From sequence record PZ789432.1: a stretch of 44,996 nt of DNA, one strand, 5' to 3'. Of this stretch, positions 6,157 through 39,628 are shown in pieces. This DNA is from a phage. Each line of letters starts with the position of its first letter. Positions within the stretch are counted from its first letter, which is position 1. The position numbers and the translations under genes are program-made. Below the pieces are notes generated by a model that saw only the letters and a list, made by a program, of their open reading frames with translations, ran no database searches and was not told where the DNA came from.

Positions 6157-6179
6157 ATTTACCGGACACTATAGGATAA
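6157..6179 (+). promoter_or_regulatory. phage RNAP promoter (atttaccggacactatagg)
   Basis: Matches the genome-wide consensus ATTTACYGGACACTATAG; predicted +1 G at 6174. Confidence 0.7.
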
Positions 6180-17806: not shown

Positions 17807-18806
17807 GCTTCGCAGCTTGTACAAAGACTCCGAGGTACTTGATGCAATCGAGCAAGCTACCGACGAGAAAGGTAATGTTAATTATAATGAGATGGCACGT
17901 GTATTATCGTGTCACCCTGTGGGTAAGAAGATTACCCGCCAGTTGGCTCGATACTGGCATGGTCAATTCAAGAAGACCAAGAAGAATGGTGATTATTACC
18001 AGACCCTTCTGCAAGAAGATAAGCGTATCAAAGAAGAGCGTAAGCTCAGGACTCCTGACCGCTACGAGGATTTGGCTATTGTACCATTGCCTGACTCGCC
18101 TCATCGAAGTGTACTGGTAATCCCTGATACTCATGCACCTTATGAGCATCCAGATACCTTAGAGTTCCTTGCAGCAGTCGCGGCACGTTACCGTCCAGAT
18201 ACAGTGGTTCACTTAGGAGATGAGGCAGATAAACACGCCCTCTCCTTCCATGACTCTGACCCTAATCTGGATAGTGCTGGCATGGAGCTAGAGAAGGCTC
18301 GTGTCTTCATGCACAAGTTGCACAAGATGTTCCCTGTGATGCGCCTGTGTCATTCTAATCACGGCTCTATGCACTTCCGTAAGGCAAGCGCCAAGGGTAT
18401 TCCAGTGCAATATCTTCGCACCTACCGTGAAGTCTTTTTCCCAAATGGAGGTGGCGACCAGTGGGATTGGCAGCATACACATGTTCTTGAGTTGCCGAAT
18501 GGTGAACAAGTGGCATTCAAGCATCAACCTGCTGGCTCTGTCCTAGCAGATGCAGCGCATGAGCGTATGAACCTTGTGTGTGGTCACTTGCACGGTAAGA
18601 TGTCTGTGGAGTACGCACGTAATACACATGAACAGTATTGGGCTGTGCAAGGTGGCTGCTTAATTGATGAGTCATCCCGTGCATTTGCCTATGGGCGTGA
18701 GTCTAAATACAAGCCAGCATTAGGTTGTGTGGTTATTCTGGAGGGTGTGCCTCATATTGTCCCGATGCAAACCAATAGCGACAACCGTTGGATTGGCAAG
18801 ATTTAG
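17799..18806 (+). CDS. calcineurin-like metallophosphoesterase
   Basis: ORF track 17667..18806 (frame open upstream); motifs VIPDTHAP, LGDEAD, HSNHG, GHLHG. Likely start TTG 17799 six nt after AAGGAGG; first ATG is at 17892. Confidence 0.75.
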   Translation: MGKLRSLYKDSEVLDAIEQATDEKGNVNYNEMARVLSCHPVGKKITRQLARYWHGQFKKTKKNGDYYQTLLQEDKRIKEERKLRTPDRYEDLAIVPLPDSPHRSVLVIPDTHAPYEHPDTLEFLAAVAARYRPDTVVHLGDEADKHALSFHDSDPNLDSAGMELEKARVFMHKLHKMFPVMRLCHSNHGSMHFRKASAKGIPVQYLRTYREVFFPNGGGDQWDWQHTHVLELPNGEQVAFKHQPAGSVLADAAHERMNLVCGHLHGKMSVEYARNTHEQYWAVQGGCLIDESSRAFAYGRESKYKPALGCVVILEGVPHIVPMQTNSDNRWIGKI

Positions 18807-18823
18807 TTGACACTATAGAACAA
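18801..18823 (+). promoter_or_regulatory. phage RNAP promoter (atttagttgacactatagaacaa)
   Basis: The copy closest to the classical SP6 promoter (ATTTAGGTGACACTATAG); +1 G at 18818. Confidence 0.7.
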
Positions 18824-18906: not shown

Positions 18907-19410
18907 ATGTCACACTATGAATGTAAGAAGTGTCATAAGCGTTATGATTACTGTACTTGTGGTCAAGAGAAAACATCTTTTAAAGTTGGAGACAAGGTAT
19001 TTCGTAATGAAAAAGATTCGATCCCTTGGAATCAATACTGCAAAGAAGCTGGTATTGACCCTGATAGCCCTGTAACCATAGATGATATTGATGGCATTAA
19101 CTTGTGCTTTCGTGAGGTGAGGGGTACAGGTTGGGATTCCAAAAAATTCAAACTTGCATCTGATAAGTTAGACAACAATATGGTAACTCAGCCTAAGCAC
19201 TACGAGTTCTTTGATGGCGTAGAAGCAATTACTATCATCGCCCGTAGTATGACTGAGAAGCAATTCGCGGGGTATTGCATGGGTAATGCTTTGAAGTATC
19301 GTCTGCGTGCAGGTAAGAAGTTCAATACTGAAGAAGACCTGAAGAAAGCAGACTACTACAAAGAGTTATTCCAGAAGCATCGTCACGAATGTATTGATGA
19401 GGATATTTAA
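18907..19410 (+). CDS. hypothetical protein: N-terminal Cys4 zinc ribbon plus DUF3310-like C-terminal domain
   Basis: ORF track 18889..19410 (GTG); ATG 18907 after GGAGG; YECKKCHKRYDYCTCG; C-terminal HYEFFDGVEAI...GNALKYRLRAGKK...EDLKKADYY resembles DUF3310 as I remember it. Confidence 0.65.
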   Translation: MSHYECKKCHKRYDYCTCGQEKTSFKVGDKVFRNEKDSIPWNQYCKEAGIDPDSPVTIDDIDGINLCFREVRGTGWDSKKFKLASDKLDNNMVTQPKHYEFFDGVEAITIIARSMTEKQFAGYCMGNALKYRLRAGKKFNTEEDLKKADYYKELFQKHRHECIDEDI

Positions 19411-19411
19411 T

Positions 19412-19585
19412 ATGGAAGGTAAACTATATAGAGGGTACTTCGGTAACTTATATAAAGTAAGCTCTCGCGGTTTTGTATTGACCTCTGATGATGAAGGTGC
19501 AATGTGGCACCTAAGTGCATATGGTTCTAACTTAGCACACTTTAAAGAGGCAATAGTCAAAGGTGTGATGAAGGAGGTGAAATGA
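19412..19585 (+). CDS. hypothetical protein (57 aa)
   Basis: ORF track 19394..19585; ATG 19412 follows the previous stop; alternative ATG 19397. Confidence 0.5.
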   Translation: MEGKLYRGYFGNLYKVSSRGFVLTSDDEGAMWHLSAYGSNLAHFKEAIVKGVMKEVK

Positions 19586-20529
19586 ACATCTTCCAATTCC
19601 TAGGTCTTCCAGAAGACCACCGCAATCATCCATTCATGCTGGTGAAGCATCGCGGTGAAGTTCCTGAGAAGAAACTTACTTTTCCATGTTATGCACAGGT
19701 GAAACGAGATGGAATATTCAGTGCTGTTGTGGTGCGCAATGATGGTGCTGTTGCCGTCTTTGGTCGTACTGGTAAGAAGCTCGCAAATGTTGAAGCCTTG
19801 GAAAAGACATTTAGTGTATTTCCTGTCGGGTTGTATCTTGGTGAGTTGCAATCTATGGCTGTTGATGTTTATCTTGAAGCTCTGTCAGGAGTGGTAAACC
19901 CTAATCGTACAGAGCCACTTGACTTCATAGGCCAGCAGATTAAAGACAACCTGTATATCGACTTCTTCGATATGTTAACTATTAAGGCATTCCATGATGG
20001 ATTCACTGATGTTTCTTATCTCAAACGTTACGATGCTTTACATCGTCGTATCGGCACTCATCTTAGCGGGTGCAACGCTATCCTTCCTATCACTCCTTGC
20101 CATAATGAGCGAGAAGTTGAAGCGTTTGCGCAAGAGCAAATAGATGCAGGACGTGAGGGTGCTGTATTCAAACTGGACTGCGATTATGAAGCAGGACACA
20201 AAGGTTATCGTCAGACTAAAGAAGTCCGTAAGGTAACTTATGACCTTACTTGTATTGGCTTTGAAGAAGGTAAAGGTAAATACAAAGGTAAGGTAGCTAA
20301 CCTCATTTTCAAGTGGAAAGGGGGCAAGACAATCAAAGCTATGCTCGGTAAAGGGTGGACTCATGCAGATGCAGAACAGATGTTCCACGATATTAAACAT
20401 GGCGGACGGTTGAATGTCATTGGTAAAATCTTTGAAGTCAAAGGTCTTCAGGATTCAAGCAAGGGCAACATTCGTCTGCCCAAAGCGGGAGAATTAAGAC
20501 ATGACAAAGATGAACCAGATTTCTTTTGA
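19582..20529 (+). CDS. ATP-dependent DNA ligase
   Basis: 315 aa; adenylation motif I AQVKRDGIF (KxDG); SD AAGGAGG. Confidence 0.85.
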   Translation: MNIFQFLGLPEDHRNHPFMLVKHRGEVPEKKLTFPCYAQVKRDGIFSAVVVRNDGAVAVFGRTGKKLANVEALEKTFSVFPVGLYLGELQSMAVDVYLEALSGVVNPNRTEPLDFIGQQIKDNLYIDFFDMLTIKAFHDGFTDVSYLKRYDALHRRIGTHLSGCNAILPITPCHNEREVEAFAQEQIDAGREGAVFKLDCDYEAGHKGYRQTKEVRKVTYDLTCIGFEEGKGKYKGKVANLIFKWKGGKTIKAMLGKGWTHADAEQMFHDIKHGGRLNVIGKIFEVKGLQDSSKGNIRLPKAGELRHDKDEPDFF

Positions 20530-20716
20530 TAGCATGAAGGCAACTCGTGCAGTTGAGGTAGCAGAAGCTATCTTTGAAACTTTATCATGTGGCATGGAAG
20601 TGCCATATACTTTACTTGCTGATGCAGAAGAACTTGGTCTTTCTGTAGAAGCTATCCAAGAGAAGGTTGACGAATTATATGGTACAGACGAAGAAGAAAC
20701 CGACGATTTCATTTGA
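20501..20716 (+). CDS. hypothetical small acidic protein (71 aa)
   Basis: ORF track; start overlaps the ligase 3' end; acidic C-terminus EEETDDFI. Confidence 0.55.
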   Translation: MTKMNQISFDSMKATRAVEVAEAIFETLSCGMEVPYTLLADAEELGLSVEAIQEKVDELYGTDEEETDDFI

Positions 20717-20720
20717 AGGA

Positions 20721-20849
20721 ATGGAGATGCTTGAGATGATTCTCAAGCCTTCTTCTCCGAAGGTGACTAAGACTCATGAAGAGTTAATCGTTGATGAAGT
20801 GAAGCGTTACATCATGGATTGTGTCAGAGCACAACTGGTGGTCCAATGA
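20721..20849 (+). CDS. hypothetical small protein (about 42 aa)
   Basis: ORF track 20667..20849; first ATG after the upstream stop is 20721; alternative ATG 20736. Confidence 0.3.
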   Translation: MEMLEMILKPSSPKVTKTHEELIVDEVKRYIMDCVRAQLVVQ

Positions 20850-21307
20850 TACGTCCAGCTTCCTTCCTAGATATTCCTGAGATTATAAACCTTGGGAATA
20901 AATATGTGGAAGAGGAAGTCAAGGTAGTGGCCCATCACTCAGCATCATGGAATGCAGAACAAAGCGCACATAACCTTTGCGCATCTCTTAGTAGAGAAGA
21001 TTTATTCCTATGGGTTGCTGTAGATGAAGGGCGGATTGTAGGGTTCCTGTGGGCTGGCTATCACGAGTTGGCCCCTTGGACACCTGTAAGGGTTGCCTCT
21101 GACATTCTCTTTTATATTATACCAGAGAAGCGAGGAACCCTACTTGGTATGCGTCTCATCAAAGCCCTAAAGCAATGGGCCAATGATAATGAATGCTCTG
21201 AGGTTCGCCTGTCTATCGCCTCTGGTATTAATGAAGAACGTGTCGGACGTATGTATAAGCGACTTGGCTTTGAACCGTTTGGCACTGTGTACAACCTGAA
21301 GTTCTAA
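20846..21307 (+). CDS. GNAT-family N-acetyltransferase
   Basis: ORF track 20819..21307 (TTG), ATG 20846; acetyl-CoA-binding region IIPEKRGTLLGMRLIKAL and C-terminal YKRLGFEPFG. Confidence 0.75.
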   Translation: MIRPASFLDIPEIINLGNKYVEEEVKVVAHHSASWNAEQSAHNLCASLSREDLFLWVAVDEGRIVGFLWAGYHELAPWTPVRVASDILFYIIPEKRGTLLGMRLIKALKQWANDNECSEVRLSIASGINEERVGRMYKRLGFEPFGTVYNLKF

Positions 21308-21316
21308 GGAGATAAC

Positions 21317-21526
21317 ATGGGTGTTGTAAAGAAAGCATTTAAGGCTATCGGTCTTGCTCAAGATGCACCACGTATTGAAGCCAAAGTCCCAGCACAGCAG
21401 CTTGAGCGTAAGCCTGAGACTGAAGCTGAAGATATTCAAATTGGTGCAGGTGGTGATGATTCGACTGCATCTGCAAAAGGTAAGCGCGGCCTTGTCCGTC
21501 CGGTAGCTTCTAGCTTGAAGGTGTAA
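21317..21526 (+). CDS. hypothetical protein (69 aa), possibly virion-associated
   Basis: ORF track; SD AAGGAG; directly upstream of portal. Confidence 0.6.
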   Translation: MGVVKKAFKAIGLAQDAPRIEAKVPAQQLERKPETEAEDIQIGAGGDDSTASAKGKRGLVRPVASSLKV

Positions 21527-21527
21527 T

Positions 21528-23078
21528 ATGAAACAGAGCACAGATTTGGAGTATGGAGGTAAGCGGTCTAAGATACCTAAGCTATGGGAGAAGTTCTCCA
21601 CTAAACGTAGCTCTTTCCTTGATAGGGCGAAGCATTACTCCAAATTAACCTTGCCCTATCTGATGAATGACAAAGGTGATAACGAGACTTCGCAGAATGG
21701 ATGGCAAGGTGTAGGTGCTCAGGCAACTAATCATCTAGCCAACAAGCTAGCGCAAGTACTATTCCCTGCACAGCGTTCCTTCTTCCGTGTAGACTTAACT
21801 GCACAAGGTGAGAAGGTTCTTAATCAGCGTGGCCTGAAGAAGACAGAGCTAGCTACCATCTTCGCTCAAGTGGAAACACGGGCAATGAAAGAGTTAGAGC
21901 AACGTCAATTCCGGCCTGCTGTAGTAGAAGCATTTAAGCATCTTATTGTTGCTGGCAGCTGTATGCTATACAAGCCGAGCAAAGGTGCAATCAGTGCTAT
22001 CCCAATGCATCACTACGTAGTTAACCGTGACACCAATGGCGACCTGTTAGACATTATCTTACTGCAAGAGAAAGCCTTACGCACCTTTGACCCAGCTACA
22101 CGTGCTGTAGTAGAGGTTGGCCTGAAAGGTAAGAAGTGCAAGGAAGATGACAGCATTAAGCTGTACACACATGCTAAGTATCTTGGTGATGGATTTTGGG
22201 AACTCAAGCAGTCTGCTGATGATATCCCTGTGGGTAAGGTGAGTAAAATCAAATCAGAAAAGCTACCTTTCATCCCATTAACTTGGAAGCGAAGCTATGG
22301 TGAGGATTGGGGTCGCCCTCTTGCAGAGGATTACTCCGGTGATTTATTCGTTATCCAATTCTTATCTGAAGCGGTTGCCCGTGGTGCTGCGCTGATGGCA
22401 GATATCAAGTACCTGATTCGTCCTGGTGCTCAAACTGATGTTGACCACTTTGTTAACTCTGGCACTGGTGAGGTTGTCACTGGTGTAGAAGAAGACATCC
22501 ATATTGTACAGTTAGGTAAGTACGCAGACCTCACACCTATTAGCGCGGTTCTAGAGGTATACACTCGCCGTATCGGTGTTGTCTTCATGATGGAGACAAT
22601 GACACGCCGTGACGCCGAACGTGTTACTGCTGTAGAAATCCAGCGAGATGCGTTAGAGATTGAGCAGAACATGGGTGGTGTATACTCCCTCTTTGCTACT
22701 ACTATGCAATCGCCAGTAGCGATGTGGGGTCTGCTGGAGGCAGGGGAGTCCTTCACTAGTGACTTAGTGGACCCTGTGATTATCACAGGTATTGAAGCTT
22801 TAGGACGCATGGCTGAGTTGGATAAACTGGCTAACTTTGCTCAGTATATGTCACTGCCATTACAATGGCCTGAGCCTGTCCTAGCTGCTGTGAAATGGCC
22901 TGACTATATGGATTGGGTGCGTGGTCAAATCTCTGCTGAACTGCCGTTCCTTAAATCGGCTGAAGAGATGGCACAAGAACAGGAAGCACAGATGCAAGCA
23001 CAGCAAGCACAGATGCTTGAAGAAGGTGTGGCTAAGGCCGTGCCGGGTGTAATTCAACAAGAACTTAAGGAGGCGTAA
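21528..23078 (+). CDS. portal (head-to-tail connector) protein
   Basis: 516 aa; position before scaffold and capsid, and size, match T7 gp8-like portal. Confidence 0.88.
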   Translation: MKQSTDLEYGGKRSKIPKLWEKFSTKRSSFLDRAKHYSKLTLPYLMNDKGDNETSQNGWQGVGAQATNHLANKLAQVLFPAQRSFFRVDLTAQGEKVLNQRGLKKTELATIFAQVETRAMKELEQRQFRPAVVEAFKHLIVAGSCMLYKPSKGAISAIPMHHYVVNRDTNGDLLDIILLQEKALRTFDPATRAVVEVGLKGKKCKEDDSIKLYTHAKYLGDGFWELKQSADDIPVGKVSKIKSEKLPFIPLTWKRSYGEDWGRPLAEDYSGDLFVIQFLSEAVARGAALMADIKYLIRPGAQTDVDHFVNSGTGEVVTGVEEDIHIVQLGKYADLTPISAVLEVYTRRIGVVFMMETMTRRDAERVTAVEIQRDALEIEQNMGGVYSLFATTMQSPVAMWGLLEAGESFTSDLVDPVIITGIEALGRMAELDKLANFAQYMSLPLQWPEPVLAAVKWPDYMDWVRGQISAELPFLKSAEEMAQEQEAQMQAQQAQMLEEGVAKAVPGVIQQELKEA

Positions 23079-24003: not shown

Positions 24004-24027
24004 TATTTACTGGACACTATAGAAGGG
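24004..24027 (+). promoter_or_regulatory. phage RNAP promoter for the capsid gene (tatttactggacactatagaaggg)
   Basis: Exact consensus; +1 G at 24022; transcript starts with hairpin gggagaaaatgtctccc. Confidence 0.8.
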
Positions 24028-25282: not shown

Positions 25283-25290
25283 TACCTATG

Positions 25291-25323
25291 CCCTATCTAC
25301 CTTGCGTAGGTAGGGTTCTTTTT
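25291..25323 (+). terminator. hairpin + U-run terminator after the capsid gene (T-phi analog)
   Basis: ccctatctac-cttgc-gtaggtaggg followed by TTCTTTTT. Confidence 0.65.
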
Positions 25324-25336
25324 GTTAGGAGGATTC

Positions 25337-38902: not shown

Positions 38903-39037
38903 AAGGCCCAGATAATAAGAGAAAATAATAGGTAATATATAGGTTAACCTAGGTTATATAGGTATGCCTTAGTATGGGTGTACTCCTGTACACCCTATTC
39001 CTTACTACCTTACTATATTTACATAATAGGAGAGACA

Positions 39038-39316
39038 ATGGCTAATGATTATAGTAGTCAACCATTAACAGGTAAGTCTAAGAGAAAGCAGGTACAACCT
39101 GTAAGTGAAGAACTAATGCTTCCGGTAATCAAAAAAGAGGAAGCTAGTAAGAAAAACAATGCTATTAATGATGCCACCAAATCAGGTAAACAGAAAGGGG
39201 CCATGGTGTGCCTTGAAGTGGAAGGTGGTGTATTGAAGATTGCTATCGCGGTTGATGGCAAAGAAGATTCAGAGTGGAAGTTAGTAACAGTGGAACCAGT
39301 TGTTAACCCAGTTTAA
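39038..39316 (+). CDS. hypothetical protein (92 aa), paralog A of a tandem pair
   Basis: ORF track 38978..39316 (GTG); ATG 39038 after AGGAG; shares SGKQKGAMV.LE...L.IA.A motif with the next ORF. Confidence 0.65.
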   Translation: MANDYSSQPLTGKSKRKQVQPVSEELMLPVIKKEEASKKNNAINDATKSGKQKGAMVCLEVEGGVLKIAIAVDGKEDSEWKLVTVEPVVNPV

Positions 39317-39334: not shown

Positions 39335-39628
39335 ATGGCTAAATATGGTACTAAAGGTTCTGTTACGGGTCAGGCTTTTCGAGTGAAAGCAGTACAAACT
39401 ATTGCAACGGCAATCCCGATGCCTGTTGTTAAAGAAGTAGACCTTAAGAGTAAAGATCACCCTATCAACATCAAACATTTATCAGGTAAACAGAAAGGTG
39501 CAATGGTTGCTCTTGAGAAAAGTGACACAACCTTACATATTGCTGTTGCACGTGGTAGTGAACCAACAGACCCTTGGGATGTAACTGGCATGGACTCGCT
39601 CGCTGTCACTCCAGCAGGTGGAGAATAA
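39335..39628 (+). CDS. hypothetical protein (97 aa), paralog B of a tandem pair
   Basis: ORF track; SD AAGGAGG; LSGKQKGAMVALEKSDTTLHIAVARG parallels KSGKQKGAMVCLEVEGGVLKIAIAVDG upstream. Confidence 0.7.
   Translation: MAKYGTKGSVTGQAFRVKAVQTIATAIPMPVVKEVDLKSKDHPINIKHLSGKQKGAMVALEKSDTTLHIAVARGSEPTDPWDVTGMDSLAVTPAGGE

Follow-up and report, generated by a model that had tools for sequence, protein, structure and literature searches.

A probable GNAT acetyltransferase gene in front of the portal gene of a K1E-like phage, and its proposed relationship to Rac of LUZ19 and to T7 gp7

The window analysed here, a stretch of phage DNA of 44,996 nucleotides (nt) from record PZ789432.1, derives from a Vectrevirus, a K1E/K1-5-like phage in the SP6 group of the Autographiviridae. 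At 20846-21307 of its plus strand (ATG 20846-20848, TAA 21305-21307), it carries a gene for a GNAT-family protein of 153 amino acids (aa), hereafter the window GNAT, which is likely to be a functional acetyltransferase, with catalysis predicted from its sequence and from a structural model. The explanation preferred here is that of an active, protein-directed acetyltransferase from an old lineage that holds one genomic slot and is shared with Rac of Pseudomonas phage LUZ19, a reading to which about an even chance of being correct is assigned. A protein substrate, whether of the host or of the phage, is favoured over a small amine. The original prediction, made from the DNA letters, had described an open reading frame (ORF) of this length that overlapped the stop codon of a small preceding ORF and lay between the DNA-metabolism and structural modules. 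Its coordinates proved exact: the start codon overlaps the TGA of a 42-aa ORF (20721-20849) in the sequence ATGA, a ligase gene lies upstream, and genes for a gp7.3-like protein and the portal follow downstream.

The window GNAT passed three Pfam models, namely PF00583 (Acetyltransf_1) with 39.3 bits against a gathering cut-off of 20.7, PF13508 with 36.7 against 27 bits and PF13673 with 25.4 against 23.6 bits. It was matched end to end (residues 1-151, E 1e-53) by phrog_1249, which carries the label 'acetyltransferase'. Related proteins comprised 43 cluster representatives at 53-98% identity, and 1237 clusters (50% identity, E<=1e-10), nearly all of about 150 aa, were retrieved when 1.8 billion cluster representatives were searched with a profile. 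Comparison with homologues at 73-89% protein identity gave a ratio of non-synonymous to synonymous substitution rates (dN/dS) of 0.05-0.16. Judged by its sequence, the ORF is far above what would be expected of a chance ORF.

An AlphaFold2 model was computed with 32 homologues as input. It reached a mean predicted local distance difference test score (pLDDT) of 87 and a predicted template modelling score (pTM) of 0.83, and only the α1-α2 loop (residues 21-40) was uncertain. The predicted topology was complete (β1-α1-α2-β2-β3-β4-α3-β5-α4-β6-β7), with α4 formed by residues 130-139. A Foldseek search with this model retrieved 868 PDB chains at E<=0.001, with template modelling (TM) scores of up to 0.81, and all of the 50 matches listed were GNATs. 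The highest ranks were taken by phosphinothricin/methionine-sulfoximine acetyltransferases, ArsN and Dpa (the 1,3-diaminopropane acetyltransferase of A. baumannii), with Naa60 in fifth place; the best viral matches were other phage GNATs. Loss of the catalytic fold in structure prediction had been named in advance as a result that would speak against a GNAT, and the modelled fold was intact at the pLDDT given above. Pfam, PHROGs, structure prediction, fold search and residue conservation thus agree with the earlier assignment to a GNAT-family acetyltransferase with a GNAT-like C-terminus.

The acetyl-CoA-binding signature that had been picked out at first sight, EKRGTLLGMRLIKAL, comprises residues 94-108 (21125-21169, plus strand). 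According to HMMER alignments and column frequencies, this segment represents motif A, i.e. the pyrophosphate-binding loop and the start of helix α3, and it pairs with motif A of the solved GNATs 4j3g, SSAT2 and Dpa. In its textbook form, motif A reads Q/R-x-x-G-x-G/A and is situated between β4 and α3. The version found here, R96-G-T-L-L-G101, deviates from this form; it keeps the Arg and the last Gly/Ala and has a Gly at position 2.

Column conservation was counted over an alignment of 175 diverse family members. R3, D9, G66, R96, W111, G141 and G146 were each conserved in at least 93% of the sequences, with R96 kept in 98%. E23 and G97 were retained in 89% each, position 90 was Tyr or Phe in 99%, and G127 was also conserved. 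The candidate general base, D86 in strand β4 (codon 21101-21103, plus strand), occupies a position that is Asp or Glu in 91% of the members and is aligned by HMMER with D80 of Dpa and with a Glu of 4j3g. The candidate general acid, Y137 in helix α4 (codon 21254-21256, plus strand), stands opposite Y128 of Dpa. The latter is the catalytic tyrosine of that enzyme, whose Y128F mutant served to trap the substrate. D9, E23 and D/E86 are conserved acidic residues close to the expected acceptor side.

On account of the Pfam matches, the intact fold, motif A, D86, Y137 and the low dN/dS, an active acetyl-CoA-dependent transferase is likely. The proposed mechanism is as follows. The gene 27-type GNAT (so named after its K1E counterpart) would belong to the non-structural core genes of SP6/K1-5-type phages. 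The phage RNA polymerase would transcribe it from a promoter at about 18810, and its translation would probably be coupled to that of the preceding 42-aa ORF (orfB). Acetyl-CoA would be bound along β4, the R96-G97...G101 loop and α3. D86 would deprotonate the acceptor amine, directly or via water, the amine would attack the thioester, and Y137 would protonate the leaving CoA thiolate. The acceptor would most likely be a protein amino group. Within the Molineuxvirinae, the window GNAT may represent an old lineage of acetyltransferases whose place is the slot in front of the gp7.3-like and portal genes across the Autographiviridae, and whose sole studied member would be Rac of LUZ19.

The gene itself is already annotated. 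The window GNAT is the same gene as K1E gene 27 (96.7% identity, with identical length and neighbours), the acetyltransferase of K1-5 (YP_654128) and that of SP6 (76% identity), and the label 'acetyltransferase' is present in GenBank/RefSeq for all three phages and for many newer records, which hold no function beyond the family name. Within 1.3 kb around the gene, the DNA shares 99.8% identity with Escherichia phage ULINTec6 and 97-98% with K1E and K1-5. The N-terminal sequence MIR was found in 29 of 32 homologues. Because nearly all of them open in this way, the ATG at 20846 was taken as the start codon, not the TTG at 20819. The K1-5 reference copy (L001:6447-6974) encodes 175 aa as the result of a 66-nt in-frame imperfect tandem duplication (HHSASWNAEQSA...). 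The duplicated segment falls into the low-confidence α1-α2 loop and is not present in the window GNAT; it is either a tolerated insertion in an acceptor-side loop or an assembly artefact. A scan for RNA families gave no Rfam match within 20300-21800, and an antisense ORF at 21167-21601 decays and is not conserved in diverged relatives. By these two tests, the interval carries no other coding or RNA element.

With tblastn, the GNAT family was detected in 249 phage records. The hosts of these phages include Escherichia, Klebsiella, Salmonella, Proteus, Erwinia, Pectobacterium, Vibrio, Aeromonas, Marinomonas, Pseudomonas syringae, Rhizobium and roseobacters. A scan of about 185,000 species genomes of bacteria and archaea revealed no close relatives of the SP6-type subfamily, and this subfamily belongs to lytic phages. 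The slot of the gene is identical in Eracentumvirus and Colwellvirinae, and the succession of a GNAT, a small virion protein and the portal was also seen in Krylovirinae, Ghunavirus and Waewaevirus. The recurrence of the order small ORF, GNAT, gp7.3-like protein and portal across these five Autographiviridae lineages provides a new context for the annotation. Further phrog_1249 members lie outside the Autographiviridae and away from any module boundary, in SIO1 (Zobellviridae; L011:2974-3435, E 2e-36) and in Yersinia phage YeP5 (L012:3001-3447, E 1.5e-44), in both cases amid genes for tail proteins and very large internal virion proteins. Four metagenomic relatives (P0065, P0069, P0075 and P0087) are tandem double GNATs of 318-385 aa, which hints at a dimer as the functional unit; the longer family members contained such tandem duplications only and no informative fusion partner.

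The case for a protein substrate draws on Rac (gp28 of LUZ19), which is a predicted GNAT (PMC7552054). When expressed alone, Rac is toxic and raises lysine acetylation, and it leads to cleavage of the RNA polymerase α subunit within its linker, which depends on a host protease (PMC7552054). The effect on α is abolished when the predicted acetyl-CoA pocket is mutated (PMC7552054). Gene order at the LUZ19 locus mirrors that of the window: a small ORF overlaps the gene for a 157-aa GNAT, which is followed by genes for a small virion protein, the portal and the scaffold. Rac-type GNATs were found in the same layout in Achromobacter phage Axy23 (Krylovirinae), Pantoea phage LIMEzero (Waewaevirus) and the T7-like Pseudomonas phages gh-1 and Henninger (Studiervirinae). 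Rac (phrog_3986) and the window GNAT are both non-structural proteins of the GNAT superfamily, are similar in size and are encoded upstream of a small virion protein and the portal; the slot of Rac follows the phage RNA polymerase gene in LUZ19, whereas that of the window GNAT follows the ligase gene.

Relatives of Rac were drawn from GenBank phage records, and a large protein search with Rac gave one near-identical cluster only. A comparison by hhalign of a shallow alignment of 32 window GNAT homologues with the single Rac sequence yielded a probability of 0.8%. The profile of 175 sequences, compared with an alignment of five Rac sequences, gave a probability of 96.2% (E 2e-9) over 100 columns. 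Four Rac-family proteins were scanned, and for three of them, including LUZ19 Rac itself, the best acetyltransferase-labelled PHROG was phrog_1249 (E 2e-6 to 2e-3). Given the hhalign result, these cross-hits and the shared slot, the two families are considered to be homologous and positional equivalents. They differ at the C-terminus: judged by alignment to the T7 gp7 model described below, Rac appears to end in a short C-terminus with a β5-β6 hairpin, neither α4 nor its tyrosine, and a conserved (N/H)GQ tail, whereas the window GNAT has α4 and β6-β7 and no short C-terminus of the Rac type. Virions of the T7-like phage φPsa17 contained gp6.7 and gp7.3, but its Rac-type 'gp7' was not detected in them (PMC4517105). 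Its absence from the virion proteome fits a transient enzymatic role better than a structural one.

It had been stated earlier that T7 itself has no such gene. This holds at the level of sequence, as T7 gp7 gave no Pfam match, and it does not hold for position and predicted fold. T7 gene 7 (L013:1631-2032; 133 aa, phrog_2746, 'host range' in RefSeq) lies in the same slot, in the order 6.7, 7, 7.3, 7.7 and 8, all downstream of the φ6.5 promoter. Cross-hits link it to the Rac family, in that phrog_2746 was matched by three of the four Rac-family proteins scanned (E 3e-8 to 1e-5), LUZ19 Rac not being among them. A 98%-identical homologue of T7 gp7, modelled with 11 input sequences, had a pLDDT of 90.6 and the topology β1-α1-α2-β2-β3-β4-α3-β5-β6. 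All of the 50 PDB matches listed by Foldseek for this model were GNATs, with a best E of 8e-6 and TM scores of up to 0.70. T7 gp7 is therefore predicted to adopt a GNAT fold in truncated and degenerate form. Motif A is lost, the corresponding region being PEADSKGLQ, and no α4 is present; because of the loss of these two parts, T7 gp7 is probably no longer an acetyltransferase. An hhalign comparison of the 11 gp7 sequences with the Rac family (4% probability) and with the window GNAT family (1.6%) was not significant. The connection of T7 gp7 to the lineage rests on the PHROG cross-hits via the Rac family, the predicted fold and the position of the gene.

Within the reading of an active, protein-directed enzyme, two kinds of target come into question, between which the probability is divided evenly. 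The first is host takeover by general acetylation of host proteins, within which a Rac-like loss of the C-terminal domain of RNA polymerase α would be an unlikely special case. A precedent in function is provided by AcrVA5, a prophage GNAT that acetylates Cas12a and is mentioned in the article on Rac (PMC7552054); the comparison concerns a GNAT of a mobile element acting on a host protein, and no specific similarity to the window GNAT is claimed. The second is a tail- or portal-proximal phage protein or an assembly protein, whose modification would affect the infectivity of the particle. A lean towards the structural module comes from the constant adjacency of the gp7.3-like and portal genes, the tail clusters of SIO1 and YeP5, the mosaic junctions described below and the 'host range' label of T7 gene 7, all of which is circumstantial. 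More tentatively, the slot before gp7.3 and the portal may have retained one ancient acetyltransferase gene ever since the T7, SP6 and phiKMV groups shared an ancestor, with a canonical GNAT in the phage studied here, a truncated Rac in phiKMV- and gh-1-like phages and a degenerate gp7 in T7. Its conserved task would then be the modification of a tail- or portal-proximal phage protein or of a host factor, setting infectivity or host range, and the α cleavage in LUZ19 would be a lineage-specific offshoot. Although possible, this wider proposal is doubtful in its entirety.

Several observations weigh against an active, protein-directed enzyme related to Rac. The central Gly of the textbook motif A is replaced throughout the family, which is probably tolerated because acetyl-CoA is held through backbone amides. 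At position 137, 74% of the 175 members have Tyr and 14% have Phe. The nearest solved relatives by profile and by fold (Dpa, the phosphinothricin/methionine-sulfoximine acetyltransferases and ArsN) act on small molecules. As regards Rac, a BLASTP comparison with the window GNAT was not significant (E 18), and membership of the window GNAT in the Rac family was rejected in that no phrog_3986 match was obtained at E<=0.01. The profile alignment spans α1 to β5 only, with the C-terminus of Rac apparently devoid of α4. The Rac homologue of LKA1 gives no α cleavage, a phenotype that is genus-specific and confined to Phikmvvirus (PMC7552054), and Rac is described in the literature as having no effect in P. 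putida. A search of the literature on the function of gene 27 of SP6, K1-5 or K1E and on counter-defence by phage GNATs found nothing on the family. Finally, gene position as evidence for a target is only circumstantial.

A small amine as the acceptor, for instance a polyamine (putrescine, cadaverine or spermidine), an amino-acid analogue or an antibiotic-like inhibitor that would be detoxified, is the rival explanation that survives best, and it is judged rather improbable. The enzyme could in this case adjust polyamine levels in connection with DNA packaging or clear a toxic metabolite. The best PDB match of the family profile was Dpa (8a9o/8a9n, E 6e-12), enzymes for small molecules led the Foldseek ranking, and the best NCBIfam matches were ArsN1 and AAC(6'). 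The conserved acidic residues near the expected acceptor side would suit an amine, and the many Gram-negative hosts are consistent with a universal metabolite, as is the proximity of portal and head genes with a role around packaging. The details of the comparison with Dpa argue against this explanation. Dpa and SSAT-type polyamine acetyltransferases have the length of the window GNAT and share about 19-20% identity with it, but only three of the seven residues of the Dpa active centre (Y21, Y25, Y65, D80, D81, E116 and Y128) are kept, as Y20, D86 and Y137. The specificity residues Y25, Y65, D81 and E116 are replaced by E24, G71, I87 and S123. Polyamine specificity was rejected as unsupported, since the residues shared with Dpa are the generic catalytic ones. 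A β-swapped dimer of the Dpa type would be conceivable for the window GNAT. BAR, PA4866 and ArsN1, which were top Foldseek matches with TM scores of about 0.8, are 19-24% identical to the window GNAT; the ranking of GNAT folds separates substrates poorly, and Naa60, in fifth place, is a protein N-terminal acetyltransferase.

Curated bacterial subfamilies were scored with NCBIfam models, and the results of 17-28 bits fell short of cut-offs of 86-300. The candidates rejected in this way were the ArsN1a arsinothricin/phosphinothricin class (NF040503, 27.9 versus 170 bits; NF040504, 24.2 versus 210 bits), aminoglycoside 6'-N-acetyltransferases (among other models NF043067, 24.6 versus 140 bits, and NF000224, 17.1 versus 225 bits), RimI (TIGR01575, 22.9 versus 86.4 bits), YpeA-like proteins (27.9 versus 124 bits) and MshD (20.6 versus 163 bits). 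Because all of these scores lie far below their cut-offs and the Dpa pocket is not kept, sequence and fold assign no substrate. The only studied relative in the slot, Rac, works through proteins, which further speaks against a small amine.

A strict orthologue of Rac, which would trigger removal of the α C-terminal domain from the RNA polymerase of E. coli or Salmonella and thereby switch off host transcription, is unlikely. The shared genomic slot and the profile-level homology of 96% would be in keeping with this role, as would the fact that Rac is sufficient when expressed alone in the host. In addition, the K1E RefSeq record names no host RNA polymerase inhibitor, although many of its products are called 'hypothetical protein'. 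However, LKA1 shows no α cleavage despite having a closer Rac homologue, in line with the restriction of the phenotype to Phikmvvirus, and Rac is inactive in P. putida. The window GNAT falls into another PHROG than Rac, and the C-terminal halves of the two proteins differ. Moreover, the phage RNA polymerase gene is early, whereas the GNAT gene is cotranscribed with portal and scaffold genes, which is late for a shut-off.

A slightly lower chance still is given to a non-catalytic or degenerate GNAT fold that acts by binding, as an assembly or host-range factor, in the way that T7 gp7 may. T7 gp7 occupies the same slot and has kept the fold while losing motif A and α4, and the replaced central Gly and the variability of Y137 could be taken as steps in this direction. 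The window GNAT, unlike T7 gp7, passes three Pfam GNAT models, and its conservation is centred on cofactor-binding and catalytic positions (R96 in 98%, G97 in 89% and the β4 carboxylate in 91% of the members), together with a full α4.

A TacT/AtaT-like toxin with aminoacyl-tRNA as its acetylation target and orfB as antitoxin or regulator is very improbable: the overlap of a small ORF with a GNAT of about 150 aa by ATGA resembles type II GNAT toxin-antitoxin operons, and Rac expression is toxic, but neither TacT, AtaT nor KacT appeared among the 57 PDB sequences that the family profile retrieved or the 50 Foldseek matches listed, orfB has no DNA-binding or antitoxin domain, PADLOC gave no match, the subfamily is found in lytic phages only with no close relative in the bacterial genomes searched, and a block of translation would hurt the phage as well.

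Few studies have dealt with post-translational modification by phages, and for acetylation there is hardly an example besides Rac and AcrVA5. The family considered here is a near-core gene of a large phage group, with the 249 phage records and more than 1200 sequence clusters mentioned above, and its carriers include candidates for therapeutic use against E. coli K1, Salmonella, Klebsiella, Proteus, Vibrio, Erwinia and Pseudomonas syringae. If the target were a host defence or transcription factor, the gene would be relevant to phage engineering. The annotation as such is ordinary. The most interesting by-product of the analysis is the proposed continuity between the window GNAT, Rac and T7 gp7: a shared slot and superfamily branch opens concrete experiments in well-developed systems, and the link may account for the 'host range' annotation that T7 gene 7 has long carried.

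The genes surrounding the window GNAT are all encoded on the plus strand. The ligase gene (19582-20529) is overlapped at its 3' end by orfA (20501-20716), which encodes an acidic protein of 71 aa (phrog_5860) and is followed by orfB (20721-20849; 42 aa, phrog_6507). The ATGA overlap of orfB with the GNAT gene makes translational coupling likely. Among 31 SP6-like loci, orfB was present in 30, the exception (L022) beginning just 28 bases 5' of its GNAT gene. Directly downstream lies the counterpart of K1E gene 28 (21317-21526), which encodes a basic, gp7.3-like protein of 69 aa (phrog_1320, E 3e-11). This homologue of the T7 tail-assembly/adsorption protein gp7.3 follows the GNAT in every case. 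Large structural genes begin with that of the portal (head-tail connector) at 21528-23078. All 31 SP6-like loci showed the order ligase, orfA, orfB, GNAT, gp7.3-like protein, portal and scaffold, within the extent of each locus; the locus search, which was performed with alignment A1, gave SP6-like contigs only.

Eleven promoters of the phage RNA polymerase, all on the plus strand, were recognized by their exact core ACACTATAG and their fit to the consensus ATTTACTGGACACTATAGAAG. The one nearest upstream of the GNAT gene is ATTTAGTTGACACTATAGAAC at 18801-18821, and the next one downstream, at 24005-24025, precedes the major capsid gene. The nine others are located at 6166, 9183, 10031, 13740, 14509, 15655, 36785, 38890 and 40575. 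A strong intrinsic terminator with an 11-pair stem and a subsequent T-run (25290-25326, plus strand) lies after the major capsid gene and is the first convincing one downstream of the GNAT gene. Sites resembling σ70 promoters were no more frequent than expected by chance. Based on the promoters at about 18810 and 24014 and the terminator at 25290, the GNAT gene is predicted to be cotranscribed with the genes for the nucleotide kinase, ligase, orfA, orfB, the gp7.3-like protein, the portal and the scaffold.

Two mosaic junctions were observed in this region. At about 20850, the identity to loci L023 and L024 changes from about 95% (ligase, orfA and orfB) to about 80%, a level that extends from the start of the GNAT gene through the portal gene. 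At about 20550, the identity to locus L029 falls at the boundary between ligase and orfA. These junctions, which represent few independent events and are circumstantial, lean towards a GNAT gene that moves together with the structural module. Between the nucleotide kinase and ligase genes (19396-19582), the identity to close relatives (L016-L029) was as low as about 10% in a 150-nt bin, which points to a variable small insertion; in ULINTec6, an ORF of 57 aa is annotated between these two genes (L002:2013-2186). Far downstream, K1E genes 41 and 42 (at about 38978-39316 and 39335-39628 of the window), whose products have 92-95 aa in K1E, are named 'acetyl-CoA acetyltransferase' in RefSeq, a name that has probably been carried over between records because these products are far too short for a thiolase.

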